A stretch of DNA of 64,000 bases from Bacteroidota bacterium. Lineage in GTDB: Bacteria > Bacteroidota > Ignavibacteria > Palsa-1295. Location of the stretch: NCBI GenBank assembly GCA_021324735.1, contig JAJPIO010000009.1, forward strand, positions 450,510-514,509, given 5' to 3'. A program made the translations under genes and the position numbers. Below are positions 8,749 through 28,380 of this stretch, piece by piece. The notes under the pieces are model-generated. The model was not told where the DNA came from. It was given only the letters and a program-made list of their open reading frames with translations, and ran no database searches. The stretch's first letter is position 1. Each line of letters begins with the position of its first letter.

Positions 8749-10188
8749 TTGGTTCGTGTAAGATTCGCTCCTTCTCCCACTGGGTACGTCCATGTCGGTT
8801 CGCTGCGTACCGCGTTATACTGTTACCTTTTTGCCCGGCGTCATAGCGGTGTAAATATTCTCCGAATAGAAGATACCGATCGCACACGCTATGTTGAAGG
8901 CGCTGTTGAGAATCTGCTTCGAACCATGGAGTGGGCCGGGATCGGCTTTGATGAAGGCCCGATCGAAGGTGGTGCGTGCGGACCCTACGTTCAATCCGAA
9001 CGCACCGAATTATATCGCGAGCACGCTAACCAGCTCATTGCAAACGGACATGCCTATGTCTGTTTCTGCACACCCGAGCGATTAGATACCGTTCGCAAAT
9101 CGCAGCAAGCTGCCGGCATTCCACCTATGTACGATCGGCATTGCCGTAATCTTTCCAAGGAAGAGGTAGATAGCAGGGTTGCTGCCGGAGAGCCGCATGT
9201 TGTTCGCCTGCGCGTACCCATTGGTGAAATGGTCCGCTTTCATGATATGATCCGCGATGACGTGGAATTCGATTCGCGCACGATCGACGATCAGGTGCTT
9301 TTGAAGTCCGATGGATTTCCGACCTATCATCTTGCAAATATCGTCGACGATCACTATATGCAAGTGACGCATGTAATTCGCGGTGAAGAATGGCTATCTT
9401 CGACGCCAAAACATGTTTTGCTCTATCAGGCATTTGGCTGGGAGCCGCCGAAGTTTGCACACCTGCCGTTACTACTGAATGCGGATCGTTCAAAACTCTC
9501 GAAGCGGCAGGGCGATGTGGCAGTAGAAGATTATAGGGACAAAGGCTATCTTCCGCAGGCCCTTATCAATTTCGTTGCTTTGCTTGGCTGGAATCCAAGC
9601 GCGACGGAAGAGATATTCTCGATGGACGAGCTTATCCGCCAGTTCGATCTCGAGCGAGTAAATAAAGCCGGTGCGGTATTCAACCGGGAAAAGCTCGATT
9701 GGATGAATGGCGAGTACATCCGCAAGATGACTCCGGAAGAATTATTGCCGCTTGTTCGTCCGCTTCTGGAAAAACGCAATTTTGTTGCGAGTGATGAGTA
9801 TGTATGCTCTGTCATCAAGCTCATGCAGGAGCGCGTCCGTACGCTGTGGGATTTCGTTGATTTTGCAAGCTACTTCTATATTACGCCTGACTTCACAACG
9901 GCGGATGAAAAATATAAGTCGAAGCACTGGACCCCGCAGGCAAAAGAACATCTCGGTGCGTTGCTTCCTAAATTAGAATCACTCGAGACCTGGAATCATG
10001 ACTCGATCGAGGCAGCTGTTCGCGAATATGCGGAAGCGAATGGTATGGGTGCGGGAAAGCTTATTCACCCGATTCGCCTGGCAGTAACGGGACGAGGTAT
10101 GGGACCGGGACTCTTTGAACTACTTGCTGTGCTTGGCAAGCAGGAGTGTGTTACACGCATTCAGCACGCACTGACATCGTTAGCGTGA
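8749..10188 (+). CDS. gltX: Glutamate--tRNA ligase
   Basis: (TTG start) VRVRFAPSPTGYVHVGSLRTALYCYLFARRH matches the class I HIGH region as HVGS. The KLSKRQGD KMSKS-like motif is present. Length is 479 aa. Confidence 0.9.
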   Translation: MVRVRFAPSPTGYVHVGSLRTALYCYLFARRHSGVNILRIEDTDRTRYVEGAVENLLRTMEWAGIGFDEGPIEGGACGPYVQSERTELYREHANQLIANGHAYVCFCTPERLDTVRKSQQAAGIPPMYDRHCRNLSKEEVDSRVAAGEPHVVRLRVPIGEMVRFHDMIRDDVEFDSRTIDDQVLLKSDGFPTYHLANIVDDHYMQVTHVIRGEEWLSSTPKHVLLYQAFGWEPPKFAHLPLLLNADRSKLSKRQGDVAVEDYRDKGYLPQALINFVALLGWNPSATEEIFSMDELIRQFDLERVNKAGAVFNREKLDWMNGEYIRKMTPEELLPLVRPLLEKRNFVASDEYVCSVIKLMQERVRTLWDFVDFASYFYITPDFTTADEKYKSKHWTPQAKEHLGALLPKLESLETWNHDSIEAAVREYAEANGMGAGKLIHPIRLAVTGRGMGPGLFELLAVLGKQECVTRIQHALTSLA

Positions 10189-22695: not shown

Positions 22696-23334
22696 ATGCT
22701 CGAAATTTACTTTCTTCGTCACGGTCAAACCGAATTCAGTCGCGACAACAAATTTTGCGGCTCTGCCACGGACGCTCAGCTCACTCCGCAGGGCCGCGCA
22801 ATGGGCGAGGCCTTCGCGGAATTTTATCGAGATACCCAATGGCGCGCGATCTACTCGAGTCCGCTCGAGCGCACTCGGATCACCGCCAACACGATCGCAT
22901 CCCGCTTAAACCAACAGCCGATCGTTCGTGACGGCCTGACCGAGATTGGCTACGGCAAATGGGAAGCGCGGACCGTGGATGAGGTCGACCGGTTATTCCA
23001 CGACGACTATCTTCGCTGGACGGCCGACCCGGCGTGGTATCCTCCGACCGAAGGCGAATCCGCAATTTCCGTTTCCACGCGCGCGCTCGAAGTCGTTCAG
23101 GAAATCCGCGATGATTGCCACGAAGGCAAGGTCCTCGTCGTCTCTCACAAGGCCACCATTCGCATCGTACTCTGCGCCCTGTTGGGCATCGATGTCGGGC
23201 GGTTTCGGTACCGGCTCGGATGCCCGGTGAGCTCCGTTAGCGTCGTCAGCTTTGCCGGACACGGCCCGCTCCTCGAAGTCCTGGCGGATCGGTCGCATCT
23301 TCCACAGGAGTTGCTCCAGCTCGAGGGCACCTGA
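22696..23334 (+). CDS. Histidine phosphatase (phosphoglycerate-mutase-like) family protein
   Basis: MLEIYFLRHGQTEFS is the RHG catalytic motif. YSSPLERTRITA and ...VVSHKATIR (catalytic His) are present. It is coupled to the upstream kinase. Confidence 0.85.
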   Translation: MLEIYFLRHGQTEFSRDNKFCGSATDAQLTPQGRAMGEAFAEFYRDTQWRAIYSSPLERTRITANTIASRLNQQPIVRDGLTEIGYGKWEARTVDEVDRLFHDDYLRWTADPAWYPPTEGESAISVSTRALEVVQEIRDDCHEGKVLVVSHKATIRIVLCALLGIDVGRFRYRLGCPVSSVSVVSFAGHGPLLEVLADRSHLPQELLQLEGT

Positions 23335-23667: not shown

Positions 23668-24194
23668 TTATGCTGGTGGCCGAAATCCTATGGGACGGCG
23701 TGGCCGCTCGTCGGCAGCGATCATCTTTTTGATCGCGTCGAATACAACTTGGAAGTTCTTATCGTACTTTCTTTCCAGCTCCTCCAGTTTGCGAGCCAGT
23801 TCACGATGGGCCGTTAGCCACGTTCGCATTTGGACGAACGTTCGCATGATCGCGATATTGACATCGATAGCCTGCTTGCTGTTGAGAATTCCGGAGAGCA
23901 TGGCGATACCTTGCTCTGTGAAGGCAAAGGGAAGGTATTTCGAATGCCCCCGCGCTTTAAGGTCACAGATTGTGATCTTAAACGGTGAGACTCCTCCACA
24001 GTCAACTCGAACATAAAGTCCTATGGGAAGCGCCGCAAATGCCGCCGAACAGATTGTTTCAGGACCCGAGTTGAAACGCCGTATTATCGTGCGAGATCGG
24101 CGTCTAAAATGACGCGCTCTCCTCGAATGAAGTAAATGTGAGAGGCAATGACCTCCTCGCGAAGCGCTACGGCATGGGTAGATTGGTTTTGCAT
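23668..24194 (-). pseudogene. ORF6N (KilA-N-like) domain protein pseudogene with two in-frame stops and a +/-1 frameshift
   Basis: Hand translation of the minus strand gives MQNQSTHAVALREEVIASHIYFIRGERVILDADLAR*YGVSTRVLKQSVRRHLRRFP*DFMFELTVEESHRLRSQSVTLKRGG, then a frame switch to KYLPFAFTEQGIAMLSGILNSKQAIDVNIAIMRTFVQMRTWLTAHRELARKLEELERKYDKNFQVVFDAIKKMI. This is collinear with the Bacteroidota ORF6N-protein pattern as recalled (...IRG..V.LD.DLAELYGV.T..LNQAV.RN..RFPEDFMF.LT.EE...LRSQ......GGRRYLPYAFTEQGVAMLS.VL.S..AI.VNI.IMRAF). TAA (24084-24086) replaces the Leu codon and TAG (24021-24023) replaces the Glu codon. The frameshift is at the C5/G5 run at 23947-23951. Confidence 0.65.
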
Positions 24195-24602
24195 AGAGGA
24201 CCGAGTTTGAAAACCTCTGCAAAATTACGAAAATGTCCCTCGATTCACAGCAAGCAGAACCAGTGTTCGGACATGGCCAGCACATCCCAGCGAGCGAAGG
24301 CAAGGCCCCGAACACCATCTGGGGCCGTCCTCGAACGGCTGTTTGATCTCGTGGAGGGGAAGCAGCAGACGAGGGTGGAGGAGCGGTAGGGACGTGCCTT
24401 CGGCGCGTCCACTGTGGGGATTAGATAACGTCAGTCAACAAGATGAATTGGCGGGCAGCAGGATTTGTAAATCGCAAGGAGCGTTATGATTGAGCACGTG
24501 ACAGCATTTCGGCATTCCCCACGCTGGACGTACCGGAGGTACGTCCCTACCGACTTAGGACCAAGCCACATTAAGACGGATTAATCGTCGGAATTGTGCG
24601 CA

Positions 24603-25520
24603 TTATGTAGTACTTTGAGGAGGCTGTTTCTTTAATGGGACAGTTGCTTGTACGCGGTCATAGAGTAGCTCTTTTAAATTAGCCGGGTTAGAGTAGAAAA
24701 TGTGGCTATAAGCTTTTGTATCAAAATGGAGCTTTTCTTTTTCCTCGATCTTGCAACACCAAACCACTGGTATTCCAAGACCGAGTGCAAAGCCCGCCTC
24801 GAAATAGCAACCACCTCGCTGACCTGTGAAATCAGCTACGACCAAGGAGCTGCGTCGTATTTCAGCCATGATTTTATCATTGATATTATCATTGTGCTGA
24901 GCAGCCTTTAGCATCATGGGGCTATATCCTGCTCTTTCGAGTGCAGGCTTAATACCGTTCGCCCAAACATCATCCATACTATCATCAAACCACATCGCCA
25001 CAAACGCTTGGTTTCCGAGCGGCGTTGTTTCCCGCAAATGTACTGCTCTGGCCCAACCGCTAAGTGTTGGCAAGAACTGTTCAACATAGCCACTCCCTCC
25101 CTCCAGTTCGAGGTAGCCCAACTCCGCCGCCTTATTCAGCCAATACCCCAACTCGTTCGGATCACAAGCGACCCAGATGGGGTATAGTATTTCTTCATCA
25201 AGAACGAACCGCTGATCCATCCGCTCAAGGCCGTCATAAAGGGTTCTAATGACGTTATCAATGGCTTCGAACAAGTTCGATGGCCTTCGAACCATACTTG
25301 CGATTTGCTCCTGCCCCTCAGTCTGTATTTCTATCCTTCGGCCGTTGTCCCATGCGAGGCGAGTCGCTGCGCTTAAAAGATAGCCAGCAACTTTTAATTC
25401 GCTGTGATATGCTTCTGGCGTGATGACGTACTGTCCGCATGTTCGGCACTTCATGCCGTAGGCCTCTCTCCCGCTAATCTCGCCACCCTCGGCTTCTTTT
25501 CCACAAAGTTTACAATTCAT
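24603..25520 (-). CDS. Gene B of a candidate conflict/defense operon: N-terminal zinc ribbon plus C-terminal nucleoside 2-deoxyribosyltransferase-like (SLOG/NDT-fold) domain protein
   Basis: 305 aa. The N-terminus MNCKLCGKEAEGG...KCRTCGQYV carries CxxC...CxxC. The C-terminal roughly 130 aa (AFVAMWFDDS...IMAEIRRSSLVVADFTGQRGGCYFEAGFALGLGIPVVW) match the NDT/DNPH1-fold pattern: hydrophobic beta1 before a Gly-rich turn, then D..G.....E.G.A.A.GKPV with the catalytic Glu. The central roughly 100 aa were not recognised. GC is about 42-45 %, lower than flanking DNA. Confidence 0.55.
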   Translation of the reverse strand: MNCKLCGKEAEGGEISGREAYGMKCRTCGQYVITPEAYHSELKVAGYLLSAATRLAWDNGRRIEIQTEGQEQIASMVRRPSNLFEAIDNVIRTLYDGLERMDQRFVLDEEILYPIWVACDPNELGYWLNKAAELGYLELEGGSGYVEQFLPTLSGWARAVHLRETTPLGNQAFVAMWFDDSMDDVWANGIKPALERAGYSPMMLKAAQHNDNINDKIMAEIRRSSLVVADFTGQRGGCYFEAGFALGLGIPVVWCCKIEEKEKLHFDTKAYSHIFYSNPANLKELLYDRVQATVPLKKQPPQSTT

Positions 25521-25578
25521 TTTACGTCAATCGTTAAGATAGGGTGAATCTCAATTCCGCTTTCGTCGTGCCGCCAAC

Positions 25579-26580
25579 CTACACGGTTTCCTGGGCGCTT
25601 GGCTCGGGTTGCTGATTGCCTTGTAAACGCTGAACATATCTGAGCTTCTTCTCAATTTCGCAATAAGCATTACGAATTCTAGTTTCTTCGCAACCTAGTT
25701 CGATTAGCGCATCAATCGTCGCCTGTAATCGGTTTTCCGCCGATTGGTGCTCGATTATACTCGCCCAAAAGTGATGTGGCGTTGCTGAAGCAAGTACCGA
25801 TTCATAATGCAAGAAAGTAAATGCTTCGGCTGACTCAGCTAACTCCTCGACTACTTTTAGGCACCGTTCCGCACATTCCGTTTTCAGACGAGAATTGAAA
25901 TCCCCAAAGACCGTCCATTCTCTTGCTAGGATGCGTCTCTGCTCTTCCTGAAACCATGTGTGAAAGCCCTCGATCTTAGCCTGATACTCGGTGAAGATGT
26001 CTTTCACGTTCAAGGGTTGATTTTGCTTCTGTAGAAAGCTCCGCGCAGATGCCTTCCAGGCGTAGCCCTCAAGAAGCTTTTTTGGAATGAGTTGCACCTG
26101 GATAATCAGACCGTCAGGGTTAAAAATATAATTAGTATTTAATTCAGGCGGTCGATAATGCACAAAGTAATCTCGAAGATCATGCATGAATCGTATCAAT
26201 TCATCTTTCGCCAGCTCATCCTTTCGTCGCTCGTAATCCGGCATCAACGTTGACCCATGCTCACGATATAGGTTCCTTGTGTGATCAGCTAAAGTTTTGA
26301 CAGCAGCTAAGTAATTGAAAATCAATAATACAATATTTTCTCTAAAAGCCAGTCCCCAAACTTTTTGCTGATTTGTGTGAAATTCCAGAAATCTCTGAGG
26401 GTTGGTGAAGTCTTCGATTGCCTTTTGCAGCATGAAATAATTTCTATCGACAAGCTTATATAAAATGTTAAGTCGAAGGCTGTTTTCAACACTCGCGACC
26501 TCTTTGCTTGCCATTCTTTCCCTATAAAGCGCCGACACCCCTTCAGTGTGCAAGATTGTTTGTCCTTCGTGAATATTCAT
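25579..26580 (-). CDS. Gene A of the candidate conflict/defense operon: helical hypothetical protein (possible HEPN/Abi-like)
   Basis: 333 aa, predicted mostly alpha-helical. It contains TRNLYREHG (an Rx5H arrangement, compatible with a HEPN motif) and many conserved-looking aromatics. GC is about 35-40 %, clearly lower than neighbouring housekeeping genes at 55-60 %. It is first in a two-gene minus-strand operon with gene B across a 58-bp gap. No family assignment is possible without a search. Confidence 0.45.
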   Translation of the reverse strand: MNIHEGQTILHTEGVSALYRERMASKEVASVENSLRLNILYKLVDRNYFMLQKAIEDFTNPQRFLEFHTNQQKVWGLAFRENIVLLIFNYLAAVKTLADHTRNLYREHGSTLMPDYERRKDELAKDELIRFMHDLRDYFVHYRPPELNTNYIFNPDGLIIQVQLIPKKLLEGYAWKASARSFLQKQNQPLNVKDIFTEYQAKIEGFHTWFQEEQRRILAREWTVFGDFNSRLKTECAERCLKVVEELAESAEAFTFLHYESVLASATPHHFWASIIEHQSAENRLQATIDALIELGCEETRIRNAYCEIEKKLRYVQRLQGNQQPEPSAQETV

Positions 26581-26961: not shown

Positions 26962-27552
26962 TTGCCGCCCACGATATTCAAGATGACCTTTCAGGAATAC
27001 CTTAGTTATTTCAATCAGTCGCTAACTTCGCTTAATACGACCGAGATCGGTCAATTTCTCGATCTGCTGGTCGATGCCTATGAGAACGACCGTACCGTGT
27101 TCGTCATCGGAAACGGTGGCAGCGCGGCCAATGCGTCGCATTTTGCCAATGACCTGGCGAAAGGTACGCTCCGCTCGATGGACCAGCCGAAGCGCCTACG
27201 GGCATTATCGCTGACCGATAACGTCGCGCTCATGACCGCGTATGGTAATGATGAAGGCTACGCGACGATCTTCGAGCAGCAATTGCGGACCTATGCTCGT
27301 CCCGGCGATATTGTCGTTGCGATCTCGGGCTCGGGTAATAGCCCGAATGTGATCTCCGCGATCGAGTGGGCCAATGCGAACGGTCTTCACACCGTAGGGG
27401 TCACCGGTTTTGCAGGCGGCAAACTCAAGCAGATCGCCTCGACGACGGTCCACGTCCCGCTCAATGATATGTGCACCTCCGAAAGCGTGCACTCGGTCAT
27501 TTTCCATTATGTCGCGATCGAATTACCGAAGCGACTGTATAAAGAATCGTAG
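26962..27552 (+). CDS. gmhA: SIS-domain phosphoheptose isomerase (D-sedoheptulose 7-phosphate isomerase, GmhA-like)
   Basis: VFVIGNGGSAANASHFANDLAKG and DIVVAISGSGNSPNVISA are SIS-domain motifs. Length is about 190 aa. An alternative start MTFQEYL lies at 26983. Confidence 0.8.
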   Translation: MPPTIFKMTFQEYLSYFNQSLTSLNTTEIGQFLDLLVDAYENDRTVFVIGNGGSAANASHFANDLAKGTLRSMDQPKRLRALSLTDNVALMTAYGNDEGYATIFEQQLRTYARPGDIVVAISGSGNSPNVISAIEWANANGLHTVGVTGFAGGKLKQIASTTVHVPLNDMCTSESVHSVIFHYVAIELPKRLYKES

Positions 27553-27726: not shown

Positions 27727-27939
27727 CTATCTCCCGTTATTTGCTGCTAAAGGATTGGAATAGCTGAAGGAGCGTAGGTCAGCGCGGGAGGATGCGTGTT
27801 CCATCGTAATGGAGATAAGATTTCCCTGATGGTCGTACTCCGCAAGGGTGTTCTCATCAAGATCGCGCGTGCTTTCAGCATCCGCTGATGCGAATTCTAC
27901 AAGCAACGTGTCGGTGTCTTGAAAGTATGTGACTTTCAT
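27727..27939 (-). CDS. DUF2283-family protein (putative antitoxin of the DUF4258/DUF2283 pair)
   Basis: 70 aa. MKVTYFQDTDTLLVEFASADAESTRDLDENTLAEYDHQGNLISITMEHAS is the canonical DUF2283 pattern (MKITYD.E.D.LYI.L). Confidence 0.7.
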   Translation of the reverse strand: MKVTYFQDTDTLLVEFASADAESTRDLDENTLAEYDHQGNLISITMEHASSRADLRSFSYSNPLAANNGR

Positions 27940-27958: not shown

Positions 27959-28201
27959 TCAATCTGGCTTGCGGAATGACCGATCGAAAAAGGCATTATG
28001 TACGGTCTCTCCATCAGGCAGGATAACAACCCTAAGCCATTTATTGTTTGCCTCGGAAATCCTGGCCCATCGTCGAATTCGGCCGTCCGATTGAATGGTT
28101 TCCCATTCTGGATTCATCATAACTCGCTGAATCCATTCAACTTCGATCCAATCGCGATCGGGAGCCGCATGTCGGTACTTGAAATATTCAGTGAATTTCA
28201 C
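27959..28201 (-). CDS. DUF4258-family protein (putative RelE/ParE-fold toxin)
   Basis: 80 aa. ...ETIQSDGRIRRWARISEANNKWLRVVILPDGETVHNAFFDRSF matches the DUF4258 C-terminal HNAFFDR motif. It lies immediately upstream of the DUF2283 gene on the same strand with a 19-bp gap. Confidence 0.7.
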   Translation of the reverse strand: MKFTEYFKYRHAAPDRDWIEVEWIQRVMMNPEWETIQSDGRIRRWARISEANNKWLRVVILPDGETVHNAFFDRSFRKPD

Positions 28202-28217
28202 GATGCCTTCCTAATTG

Positions 28218-28380
28218 TAGCCGTGACATTTATGTCACGGCGAGTTGACGGATGCGTACCATGTTGTTGAAACCATGTTCATGGCGGTCGGTGCGTTTCG
28301 CCGTGACCTAAAGGTCACGGCTACGAAATCACGTGGTATGTTTCGCCGTAACCTAAAGGTTACGGCTACGAAATCACGCT
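28218..28380. repeat. Cluster 2 of REP-like self-complementary 22-bp hairpin repeats (three copies)
   Basis: GCCGTGACATTTATGTCACGGC is at 28220-28241, GCCGTGACCTAAAGGTCACGGC at 28300-28321 and GCCGTAACCTAAAGGTTACGGC at 28345-28366. The inter-hairpin sequence is about 85 % identical to cluster 1, in the same orientation. Clusters 1 and 2 bracket the TA pair. Confidence 0.8.

Follow-up and report, generated by a model that had tools for sequence, protein, structure and literature searches.

Two adjacent genes on the minus strand of a Bacteroidota genome, here called gene A and gene B, raised the question whether they work together as one defence system or merely stand side by side. An earlier note, made from the DNA letters, had proposed the former, a two-gene operon directed at nucleotides. 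We analysed the pair within the whole stretch of DNA available (64,000 nucleotides; hereafter the window) and compared both proteins with their relatives in other genomes.

Locus layout and base composition

Both genes were confirmed as co-directional open reading frames 58 bp apart, exactly where the earlier note had placed them. The locus comprises the following features (positions are those of the window):

24384..24552 (strandless), long inverted repeat on the 3′ side of gene B, its 37-nt arms separated by a 95-nt spacer
24603..25520 (−), gene B, 305 aa
25521..25578 (−), spacer of 58 bp between gene A and gene B, with a weak sigma-70-like site and without a terminator
25579..26580 (−), gene A, 333 aa
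27552-28366 (strand not given), palindromic repeat family, five copies vs. none expected
27727-27939 (strand not given), DUF2283, by Pfam match
27959-28201 (strand not given), 80-aa ORF with no Pfam match at E≤0.01

In some sources gene A is called as a 311-aa protein instead.

The shared strand, the short spacing and the lack of a terminator-like site between the genes speak for a two-gene operon, as does their location in a single 3.6-kb islet. Against it stands a promoter-like site within the spacer. This sigma-70-like match at 25548-25519(−) agrees at 9 of 12 positions; such sites are not found in the region above shuffle expectation, and scans for promoters and terminators near the two genes did not rise above chance level. 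Co-transcription is possible and, because A and B are so oriented and spaced with no terminator between them, so is a local functional coupling of the two in this genome.

The 3.6-kb stretch carrying both genes lies between housekeeping genes, its borders being a histidine-phosphatase gene (His_Phos_1, ends at 23334) and a SIS-domain gene (starts at 26962), and is best read as a small variable islet. The long inverted repeat marks the junction of the gene B flank with an ORF6N-like remnant; its arms occur in just two copies in the whole window and the region folds with z=−4.4. The remnant had been taken for an ORF6N pseudogene and counted as a mobile marker, yet it gave a sub-threshold match only (23.4 bits vs. 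a cut-off of 27.8), confined to the final 24 positions of the domain. As for the DUF4258/DUF2283 TA pair described in the earlier note, DUF2283 is present, and the 80-aa ORF called DUF4258 there has no Pfam match at E≤0.01. The reported REP-like repeats do exist, as the palindromic repeat family listed above. An Rfam search of the window returned three tRNAs and nothing else.

Base composition gives a weak argument for a foreign gene pair. GC had been put at 35-40 % for gene A and 42-45 % for gene B in surroundings of 55-60 %, which is overstated: the measured values are 0.436 and 0.481-0.483 at a window mean of 0.500, and 0.54-0.60 is reached only by the two immediate flanking genes. Of the 46 genes that code for 150 aa or more, gene A has the lowest GC (z=−2.2) but just the 9th lowest GC3 (z=−1.1). 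As its GC3 is unremarkable and its GC2 is 0.33, the low GC of gene A comes mainly from its amino-acid content. Gene B is 11th lowest in GC (z=−0.7), and both its GC and its GC3 are typical of the genome.

Pairing of genes A and B in other genomes

The joint occurrence of the two families bears on the choice between one system and two. No gene A relative was found at any of 81 gene B loci (phmmer, E<10), no true gene B family member at any of 73 gene A-family loci, which were scanned with a profile from a 10-sequence sub-alignment, and none of 36 viral loci carried both families. Even at the locus of the closest gene B homolog (58% identity) gene A is absent, and its upstream place is taken by a PIN_3 gene and a 106-aa ORF. 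In the gene A relatives sampled the flanking genes are on the opposite strand, and the gene is monocistronic where this is readable. A conserved partner was found for neither family: none among the immediate and ±2 neighbours of gene B (BLAST clustering, Pfam, PADLOC), and none, nor any cognate antitoxin-like neighbour, for the gene A family.

A single locus, L092, does pair a gene A-family member with a distant NDT-like protein, located 2.4 kb downstream, and could be taken as support for an operon. That protein was rejected as a member of the gene B family, as it scores 27.6 bits, has an N-terminal catalytic domain and does not adjoin the gene A-family member.

The earlier note had made its two-gene operon dependent on the pair being co-conserved and syntenic in other genomes, and by the above counts the claim that the operon acts as one system does not stand. 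We consider it very unlikely that A and B belong to a single defence operon in which the HEPN-like A serves the NDT-like enzyme as sensor, regulator or second effector. Instead we favour, with a little better than even confidence, the reading that the islet holds two independent solo accessory genes and not a two-component system, with B a sensor-effector N-glycosidase and A a HEPN-like protein. Adjacency in a single genome, combined with a plausible domain story, had here misled towards a two-gene system.

Gene B and its NDT/DNPH1-like domain

Gene B was divided into the following parts:

25422..25520 (−), zinc ribbon, aa 1-33, with C3, C6, C25 and C28; three short β-strands, pLDDT >90
25026..25421 (−), middle region, aa 34-165, helical and ending in a three-helix + β-hairpin unit
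24636..25025 (−), NDT/DNPH1-like (flavodoxin-like) N-glycosidase-type domain, aa 166-295, by fold and profile alignment
24798..24800 (−), codon of Glu241, the predicted catalytic nucleophile, invariant in 30 family members

A zinc ribbon joined to an NDT/DNPH1-type domain with a catalytic Glu is what had been described for this protein, and the Cys positions, the fold and the profile alignment bear it out. C25 and C28 do not vary across 30 homologs, of which at least 90% also keep C3 and C6. The AF2 model (pLDDT 86.4) has the secondary-structure elements H83-96, H109-115, H121-133, E137-140 and E148-151. From this topology only, the end of the middle region may be winged-HTH-like. The middle region, which had no sequence match in Pfam or the PDB, is presumed to be the sensor or nucleic-acid-binding part.

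The C-terminal domain has a flavodoxin-like α/β fold superposable on NDT, DNPH1 and MilB. The motifs FVAMWF and ADFTGQRGGCYFEAGFALGLGIPVV, both pointed out in the earlier note, are present, and nowhere is the family more strongly conserved than in these blocks. E241 is invariant also in distant relatives with other architectures, as are F173, D230, T232, G233, G243, F266 and D267 across different architectures. Profile alignments place E241 opposite the Glu within the DNPH1/Rcl sequence GYELG (E=1.4e-4) and opposite that within AFEVG of T. brucei NDT; Glu98 of NDT is cited as the nucleophile (PMC3710099, its reference 111; 10.1101/2023.08.16.553469). These alignments were obtained with the profile of the isolated catalytic domain, while the full-length gene B profile gave noise against PDB sequences. 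The invariance of the Glu and its surrounding motif argues for a probable catalytic function rather than mere ligand binding.

Against PF05014, gene B scored 26.6 bits at full length and 28.5 bits as an isolated domain, narrowly missing the gathering threshold of 28.8 bits, while 12 of 13 diverse relatives matched this model (E<0.01). Gene B is therefore placed on a divergent branch of the superfamily and is not a core PF05014 member. NDT-family proteins outscored TIRs in both profile and fold comparison, and the sequence-profile test against TIR models (STIR clan) did not support a TIR assignment. PADLOC matched gene B to the CBASS 'Effector/TIR' domain model PDLC00733 (1.6e-13). This was the only PADLOC match, and it concerns the TIR-like part of the CBASS effector; in keeping with the earlier note, neither protein could be assigned to a named defence system. 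The SLOG label also attached to gene B was rejected, as neither structure nor profile put its closest similarity with SMF/DprA-LOG.

At identities of 38-58%, the gene B family numbers at least 1,365 cluster representatives, nearly all of them full length. Species-representative genomes contain at least 593 loci of the family, spread patchily over many phyla. The N-terminal half had no match among plasmids, and in the sample studied the N-terminal region was not fused to other effector domains. The family is of a known kind and an uncharacterised architecture. One source labels a homolog as a PadR-family regulator.

We infer the N-glycosidase activity of gene B, together with its substrate, trigger and role in defence, as follows. 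Gene B would be a self-contained sensor-effector, its N-terminal half being fused to an NDT/DNPH1-type N-glycosidase. The zinc ribbon and the helical, wHTH-like region may serve to bind a cue, either nucleic acid or protein, and to hold the enzyme off. In the active state Glu241 would attack C1′ of the nucleotide substrate, likely a (deoxy)nucleoside monophosphate, an adenine nucleotide or NAD+. Once switched on, the enzyme would drain or poison this pool, with abortive infection or growth arrest as the outcome, as with the retron-Eco1 NDT-like effector.

The neighbourhoods of the family bear on whether gene B takes part in conflict at all. It might rather be a nucleotide-salvage or repair enzyme, or a transcription factor that combines an NDT-like nucleotide-sensing domain with a DNA-binding zinc ribbon/wHTH. 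The closest solved relatives, MilB, NDT and DNPH1, are metabolic enzymes, and the PadR-family name and the genome-typical GC and GC3 would agree with such a role. Many homologs lie amid plain housekeeping genes, and in three FCB-group genomes gene B is flanked by a GlcD-like oxidase on one side, where the synteny is kept, and by a carboxylesterase on the other. (An identification of the upstream gene in L044, L049 and L060 as hsdM was rejected; it is a GlcD-like FAD oxidase.) Because so many homologs have housekeeping neighbours, the defence association of gene B is partial. Yet the family is patchy across phyla and not clade-wide, and it turns up again and again within R-M operons and proviruses: by raw count, the gene lies inside or beside R-M operons in at least 9 groups of loci, namely L037, L039, L051, L061, L069 and L083 plus three proviral groups, and family members were found on 34 viral or proviral contigs. 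Related catalytic modules occur on plasmids, where they adjoin integrase/recombinase genes, a SEFIR protein, or ATPase and HNH genes; others belong to the lysogeny module of Streptococcus prophages, and PHROG families exist for the catalytic module. The statement in the earlier note that this fold recurs in conflict systems is supported, the module being found in conflict and mobile contexts such as these R-M operons, proviruses, plasmids and prophages. The PADLOC effector-domain match, the existence of split or truncated, pseudogene-like copies and the invariant catalytic Glu with its motif likewise count against a non-conflict function, which we regard as quite unlikely.

Among known systems, the type II-A effector of retron-Eco1 (Ec86) provides the nearest parallel to the proposed sensor-effector. 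It combines an NDT-like domain (catalytic E106) with a wHTH and is held inactive until a phage cue, upon which nucleotides are depleted (10.1101/2023.08.16.553469). Gene B shares the NDT-like domain with its Glu, E241 in this case, and a putative wHTH-type domain for contact with nucleic acid. The order differs, however, being NDT-wHTH in Ec86 and wHTH-like-NDT in gene B, and gene B has an additional zinc ribbon and occurs alone; no reverse transcriptase or msr/msd RNA was found beside it, gene A having no RT domain, and there was no PADLOC retron-effector match.

Proteins that join an Abi N-terminal domain (NTD) to an NDT have been predicted to be toxins (PMC3710099). Like AbiJ-NTD1-NDT (Anantharaman et al. 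2013), gene B would unite a sensor NTD and an NDT toxin in one polypeptide, and it shares with the Abi fusions the variable contexts and the association with R-M systems and mobile elements. In contrast to them, its N-terminal region matches no AbiJ-NTD or other Pfam model and was not found, in the sample studied, with other effectors; the Abi fusions are themselves just predictions. DNPH1/Rcl, the NDTs and the CMP N-glycosidases MilB/BcmB (PF05014 clan) have the same fold and catalytic-Glu motif, but they are single-domain metabolic enzymes of about 120-170 aa, whereas gene B adds about 165 N-terminal residues and is found in accessory contexts.

Resemblance extends also to the TIR and TIR-like NADase effectors, among them Swarozyc (DUF4062), as a single-gene TIR-like system, and ThsI, as an NDT-superfamily effector; ThsI, which belongs to type VIII Thoeris, has a CMP-hydrolase domain (10.64898/2025.12.03.692087). 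Unlike these two, ThsB and the TIR effectors of CBASS/Pycsar, gene B is without a SAVED, STING or TPR domain and without the DUF4062 signature. At the gene B locus we found no CD-NTase cyclase, gene A and the flanking genes being without a cyclase or PADLOC match, and neither a TIR-domain partner nor a TPR as in Thoeris, type VIII included.

Taken as a whole, a stand-alone Abi-like N-glycosidase is a plausible description of gene B. If the family does consist of stand-alone anti-phage N-glycosidases, it would be a widespread addition to nucleotide- and NAD-depleting immunity, present as it is in at least 593 species genomes and on 34 proviral contigs. Gene B would then be a retron-free NDT + wHTH effector and could help to show how such enzymes are controlled between the off and on states.

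Gene A and the HEPN-type motif

Gene A had appeared to be an orphan, as a word-index search found gene A alone. Exhaustive phmmer searches overturned this, yielding 1,088 representatives at E≤1e-3, of which 283 reach E≤1e-10; it was the word-indexed homology search that had misled towards orphan status. Gene A and 59 relatives had no match in Pfam, NCBIfam or the PDB and no PADLOC match of note, and gene A matches phrog_12680, of unknown function, weakly. Gene A is a member of a separate, widespread, uncharacterised family predicted to be all-helical. The conserved parts are:

25876..26523 (−), conserved core of the family, about aa 20-235, from the extent of matched stretches and the alignment
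26158..26175 (−), motif R136-D-Y-F-V-H141, an Rx4H of HEPN type, with R136 and H141 in 60/60 sequences
26275..26286 (−), motif D99-H100-T-R102, with D99 in 54/60, H100 in 56/60 and R102 in 55/60

The earlier note had proposed TRNLYREH as a HEPN-compatible motif. This does not hold, as its His108 is not conserved and is replaced by K, E or G in relatives. HEPN proteins have a conserved Rx4-6H with a polar residue after the R (PMC3710099), a pattern shown by R136/H141 and not by R102...H108: the residue after R136 is polar in 54 of 60 family sequences (N21, Q17, H7, D5, E4). The D99-H100-T-R102 motif overlaps the start of the TRNLYREH stretch (26257-26280).

The Rx4H together with the upstream Asp/His/Arg cluster suggests that gene A may be a HEPN-like metal-independent RNase. 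It could also be a non-HEPN helical protein, for instance a regulator, a scaffold or a prophage-derived protein, in which the conserved Arg and His play another role. None of the 60 family members matches a HEPN_* or Abi_2 Pfam model (E≤0.01) or a PDB chain, and there is no conserved cognate antitoxin-like neighbour. Rx4-6H is moreover a low-information pattern, with 2.6±1.5 matches in shuffled gene A and at least one in 93% of the shuffles, and the likewise invariant F131, W175 and W209 and a predicted β-hairpin lie outside the HEPN definition. On the other side, the Rx4H is kept in all 60 sequences despite an overall identity of about 20-30%, and the polar residue after the R is typical of HEPN. 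Published HEPN hallmarks are a motif that ends a long predicted helix and an acidic residue conserved in the preceding helix; in the single-sequence AF2 model of gene A, unreliable at a pLDDT of 43.5, R136-H141 ends helix 113-141 and D99 is near the end of helix 73-108. A non-HEPN protein is possible, though we would give it clearly less than even weight.

Viewed as HEPN-like, gene A resembles the HEPN Abi RNases (AbiD/F, AbiU2, AbiV, PrrC/RloC-type) in being helical, in its Rx4H with a polar residue after the R, and in its stand-alone occurrence in variable or defence-type contexts. It differs from them in the upstream motif, which is D-H-x-R and not Ex3[KR], in the extra invariant aromatics and the β-hairpin insert, and in matching no HEPN family profile; its helical fold is a predicted one.

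The families of gene A and gene B have about a thousand or more members each, and neither is in Pfam or PADLOC. Both genes might even be founders of new single-gene immunity families, B as a ZnR-wHTH-NDT protein whose N-terminal half would sense a nucleic acid or protein of the phage and whose Glu241 would then serve to cleave a nucleotide or NAD+ pool, and A as a new stand-alone clade of HEPN-type RNases; we put this forward tentatively, as somewhat unlikely. The gene A family, with about 1,000 representatives of which none is annotated, would be a new candidate HEPN clade. The neighbours of its members include IS110 transposases, SLFN/AlbA_2, HsdS, SduA_C, a NACHT C-terminal domain, Fic and AbiU2.

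The islet and its surroundings

Gene A and gene B occupy an islet of approximately 3.6 kb between a histidine-phosphatase gene (ending at 23334) and a SIS-domain gene (starting at 26962). Both ORFs were found exactly where the earlier note had placed them, separated by a 58-bp spacer; public gene callers differ on the start codon of gene A (311 vs. 333 aa). The following features were determined:

23668–24318: ORF6N-like ORF of 216 aa, domain match at 23890–23973
24384–24552: long inverted repeat between the gene B stop codon and the ORF6N-like remnant (37-nt arms, 95-nt spacer)
24603–25520, minus strand: gene B, 305 aa
25579–26580, minus strand: gene A, 333 aa
27544–27706 and 28217–28378: REP-like palindromic repeat family (GCCGTGACCTnnAGGTCACGGC), 5 copies vs. 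0 expected
27727–27939, minus strand: DUF2283 gene (Pfam match, 51.7 bits)
27959–28201, minus strand: 80-aa ORF upstream of the DUF2283 gene, previously read as DUF4258

Both genes had been described as clearly poorer in GC than DNA of 55–60% around them. As written, this did not hold: mean GC of the window is 0.500 (sd 0.025, 1-kb windows), and values of 0.54–0.60 occur only in the two genes directly flanking the islet. Gene B (0.481) ranks 11th lowest among the 46 genes of at least 150 aa (z = −0.7; GC3 z = −0.6). Gene A (0.436) has the lowest total GC in this set (z = −2.2); as its GC2 is 0.33 and its GC3 only 9th lowest (z = −1.1), the low value is largely an amino-acid effect.

The mobile and selfish markers ascribed to the neighbourhood were confirmed in part. 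The DUF2283 gene and the palindromic repeats stand, but ORF6N remained below threshold and the toxin-antitoxin assignment is only half supported, since the 80-aa ORF gave no Pfam match at E ≤ 0.01. In the 216-aa ORF only the last 24 ORF6N positions were matched (23.4 vs. 27.8 bits) and the first ~115 residues do not resemble coding sequence; the ORF is probably what truncation has left of a gene of phage or mobile-element origin. All copies of the REP-like repeat in the 64-kb window lie clustered to the left and right of the DUF2283 gene pair, and reading them as protein gives rise to spurious "RRDLKVTAT" ORFs. The arms of the inverted repeat are 84% complementary, each with its own short hairpin, and no further copy exists in the window; folding of the region gave z = −4.4. 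The repeat may represent a terminator, the remnant of a MITE-like element or the edge of the islet.

Domain architecture of gene B

The gene-B family is large and well conserved. It counts 1,365 or more cluster representatives, almost all of them ~300 aa long and matching end to end at 38–58% identity, and species-representative genomes carry at least 593 loci (Acidobacteriota, Chloroflexota, Bacteroidota, Gemmatimonadota, Planctomycetota, Verrucomicrobiota, Proteobacteria, and others). All motifs reported earlier are present: the CxxC...CxxC pair (Cys3, Cys6, Cys25, and Cys28), FVAMWF and ADFTGQRGGCYFEAGFALGLGIPVV. A confident alignment-based AF2 model (pLDDT 86.4) shows a three-stranded zinc ribbon (aa 1–33), a helical region (aa 34–165) ending in a three-helix and β-hairpin unit, which from its modeled topology appears winged helix-turn-helix (wHTH)-like, and an α/β domain (aa 166–295). 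The profile of the isolated catalytic domain matches DNPH1/Rcl (E = 1.4e-4) and Trypanosoma brucei nucleoside 2-deoxyribosyltransferase (NDT; E = 0.016), and Glu241 aligns with the catalytic Glu of GYELG in the former and AFEVG in the latter. Gene B scores 26.6–28.5 bits against PF05014, just under the cut-off of 28.8, and 12 of 13 diverse relatives match this family. The core residues F173, D230, T232, G233, E241, G243, F266, and D267 are invariant across relatives with differing accessory domains, including proteins from a Bacillus mycoides plasmid, a Leptospira plasmid and a Streptococcus prophage. Taken together, the model, the Glu241 alignment, the PF05014 matches and the core residues bear out the previous domain call of a zinc ribbon joined to an NDT/DNPH1-type enzyme whose catalytic residue is acidic, while the "SLOG-fold" label is imprecise.

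The nearest characterized analogue is the effector of retron-Eco1 (Ec86), which consists of an NDT-like domain with catalytic E106 and a wHTH lobe and responds to a phage cue by depleting adenine nucleotides (10.1101/2023.08.16.553469). Gene B differs in lacking an RT or msDNA partner, in its reversed domain order and in the added zinc ribbon. Its architectural principle is that of the Abi-type N-terminal sensors fused to an NDT toxin, predicted in 2013 (PMC3710099). Other effectors of the NDT superfamily or of TIR-like type operate in type VIII Thoeris (ThsI) and in Swarozyc, a single-gene system. Assignment of gene B to CBASS, retrons or Thoeris fails, as their defining partner genes are absent at the locus.

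The gene A family and its relation to gene B

A word-indexed search of 5.8 billion proteins matched gene A to itself only. That apparent orphan status was overturned by exhaustive HMMER searches, which gave 1,088 representatives at E ≤ 1e-3 (283 at E ≤ 1e-10), mostly of 230–330 aa, at 20–35% identity over aa ~20–235. Among 60 aligned members, no match was obtained in Pfam, whose HEPN_* and Abi models were all covered, nor to a PDB chain or a meaningful PADLOC model; the only match was a weak one to phrog_12680, of unknown function. Residues F131, R136, H141, W175, and W209 are invariant, and N89, L97, D99, H100, R102, Y116, L135, P145, Y199, and F206 are conserved in at least 90% of the sequences. 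The HEPN-compatible motif proposed earlier, TRNLYREH, overlaps a conserved D-H-T-R, but its His108 is replaced by K, E or G in relatives, and Rx4-6H patterns arise 2.6 ± 1.5 times in each shuffle of gene A. The family signature is instead R136-x4-H141 (consensus LR[N/Q/H/D]YxxHY), found in 60/60 sequences, with a polar residue after the Arg in 54. The sole structural model was unusable (pLDDT 43.5). HEPN membership is thus a reasonable, though unproven, proposal.

The two genes had been proposed as a candidate two-gene defense system. With phmmer, gene A found no match even at E < 10 among all ORFs of at least 50 aa at 81 other gene-B loci, and no gene-B family member was present at 70 further metagenomic gene-A-family loci. 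Three directly inspected gene-A relatives have opposite-strand genes on both flanks. Upstream of the closest gene B homolog (58% identity) are a PIN_3 gene and a 106-aa ORF. Viral contigs gave 34 loci with gene-B relatives, two with gene-A relatives and none with both. No recurrent neighbour was detected for either family; the pair is thus neither co-conserved nor syntenic at the loci examined, an outcome that the earlier note had itself named as refuting its proposal. The only hint of proximity among the loci examined came from a 53-kb metagenomic contig (L092), where a 303-aa protein (9248–10159; motifs FVAMPL...ADLTGG...ETG...FD) is encoded 2.4 kb downstream from a member of the gene-A family; its divergent NDT-like domain is N-terminal and its C-terminal half unrelated, an architecture different from that of gene B.

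Most likely, gene A and gene B are accessory genes independent of each other that share a small variable islet. Their families are two widespread, unannotated solo families, one of which is a credible candidate for an N-glycosidase that confers immunity as a single gene, and as such would belong to a general kind already known. Gene B would act in defense as a self-contained Abi-like sensor-effector, whose zinc-ribbon/wHTH-like half would inhibit the NDT-type domain until a trigger releases it; the released domain would then hydrolyze a nucleotide or NAD+ pool. Gene A may be a stand-alone HEPN-like protein.

Genomic contexts of the relatives

Neighbours of the gene-A family are housekeeping genes mixed with IS110 transposases, SLFN/AlbA_2 and HsdS, and also Shedu SduA_C, a NACHT C-terminal domain, Fic and AbiU2. 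On one short metagenomic contig (L086) a HEPN_AbiU2-domain gene (710–1054) lies immediately upstream of the family member, on the opposite strand.

Gene-B homologs likewise occur in mixed neighbourhoods, some of them clearly of housekeeping type. In three FCB-group genomes (Bacteroidetes, L044, 8001–8894; Ignavibacteriales, L049, 4718–5620; Chlorobiaceae, L060, 8001–8906) the homolog occupies an equivalent position, with a GlcD-like FAD oxidase immediately upstream and, in L049 and L060, a carboxylesterase next on the downstream side; beyond the latter, L049 has a CCG/Fer4 protein. Either a conserved insertion site or vertical inheritance would account for this placement, which argues against a simple "always mobile" picture of the family. 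A notable subset lies within or beside restriction-modification operons, with HsdR downstream (L037), a Type ISP enzyme (L061) or a T5orf172 protein (L036) upstream, or HsdM-like or HsdR-like neighbours (L039, L051, L069, L083, and three proviral groups); SLFN/AlbA_2, STALD and SNF2 were also seen. Split or shortened homologs were seen at L075 (61–956), L034, L064 and L079. Some, as in L075, are divided between an N-terminal ORF and a catalytic one, and others comprise only the catalytic domain (~150 aa); they may be pseudogenes produced by frameshifts or minimal forms that function alone.

Related catalytic modules make up PHROG families of unknown function. They were found between integrase and recombinase/HNH genes on the B. 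mycoides plasmid, adjoining ATP-binding and HNH genes on a Hydrogenimonas plasmid, and in the repressor/integrase-proximal slot of Streptococcus prophages. On Leptospira interrogans plasmid p4 (L161, 3997–8809), a 323-aa module protein without zinc ribbon has a SEFIR-domain protein as its immediate neighbour on one side and a 772-aa SAM-dependent methyltransferase on the other; the three genes share a strand and possibly form a multi-gene defense cluster.
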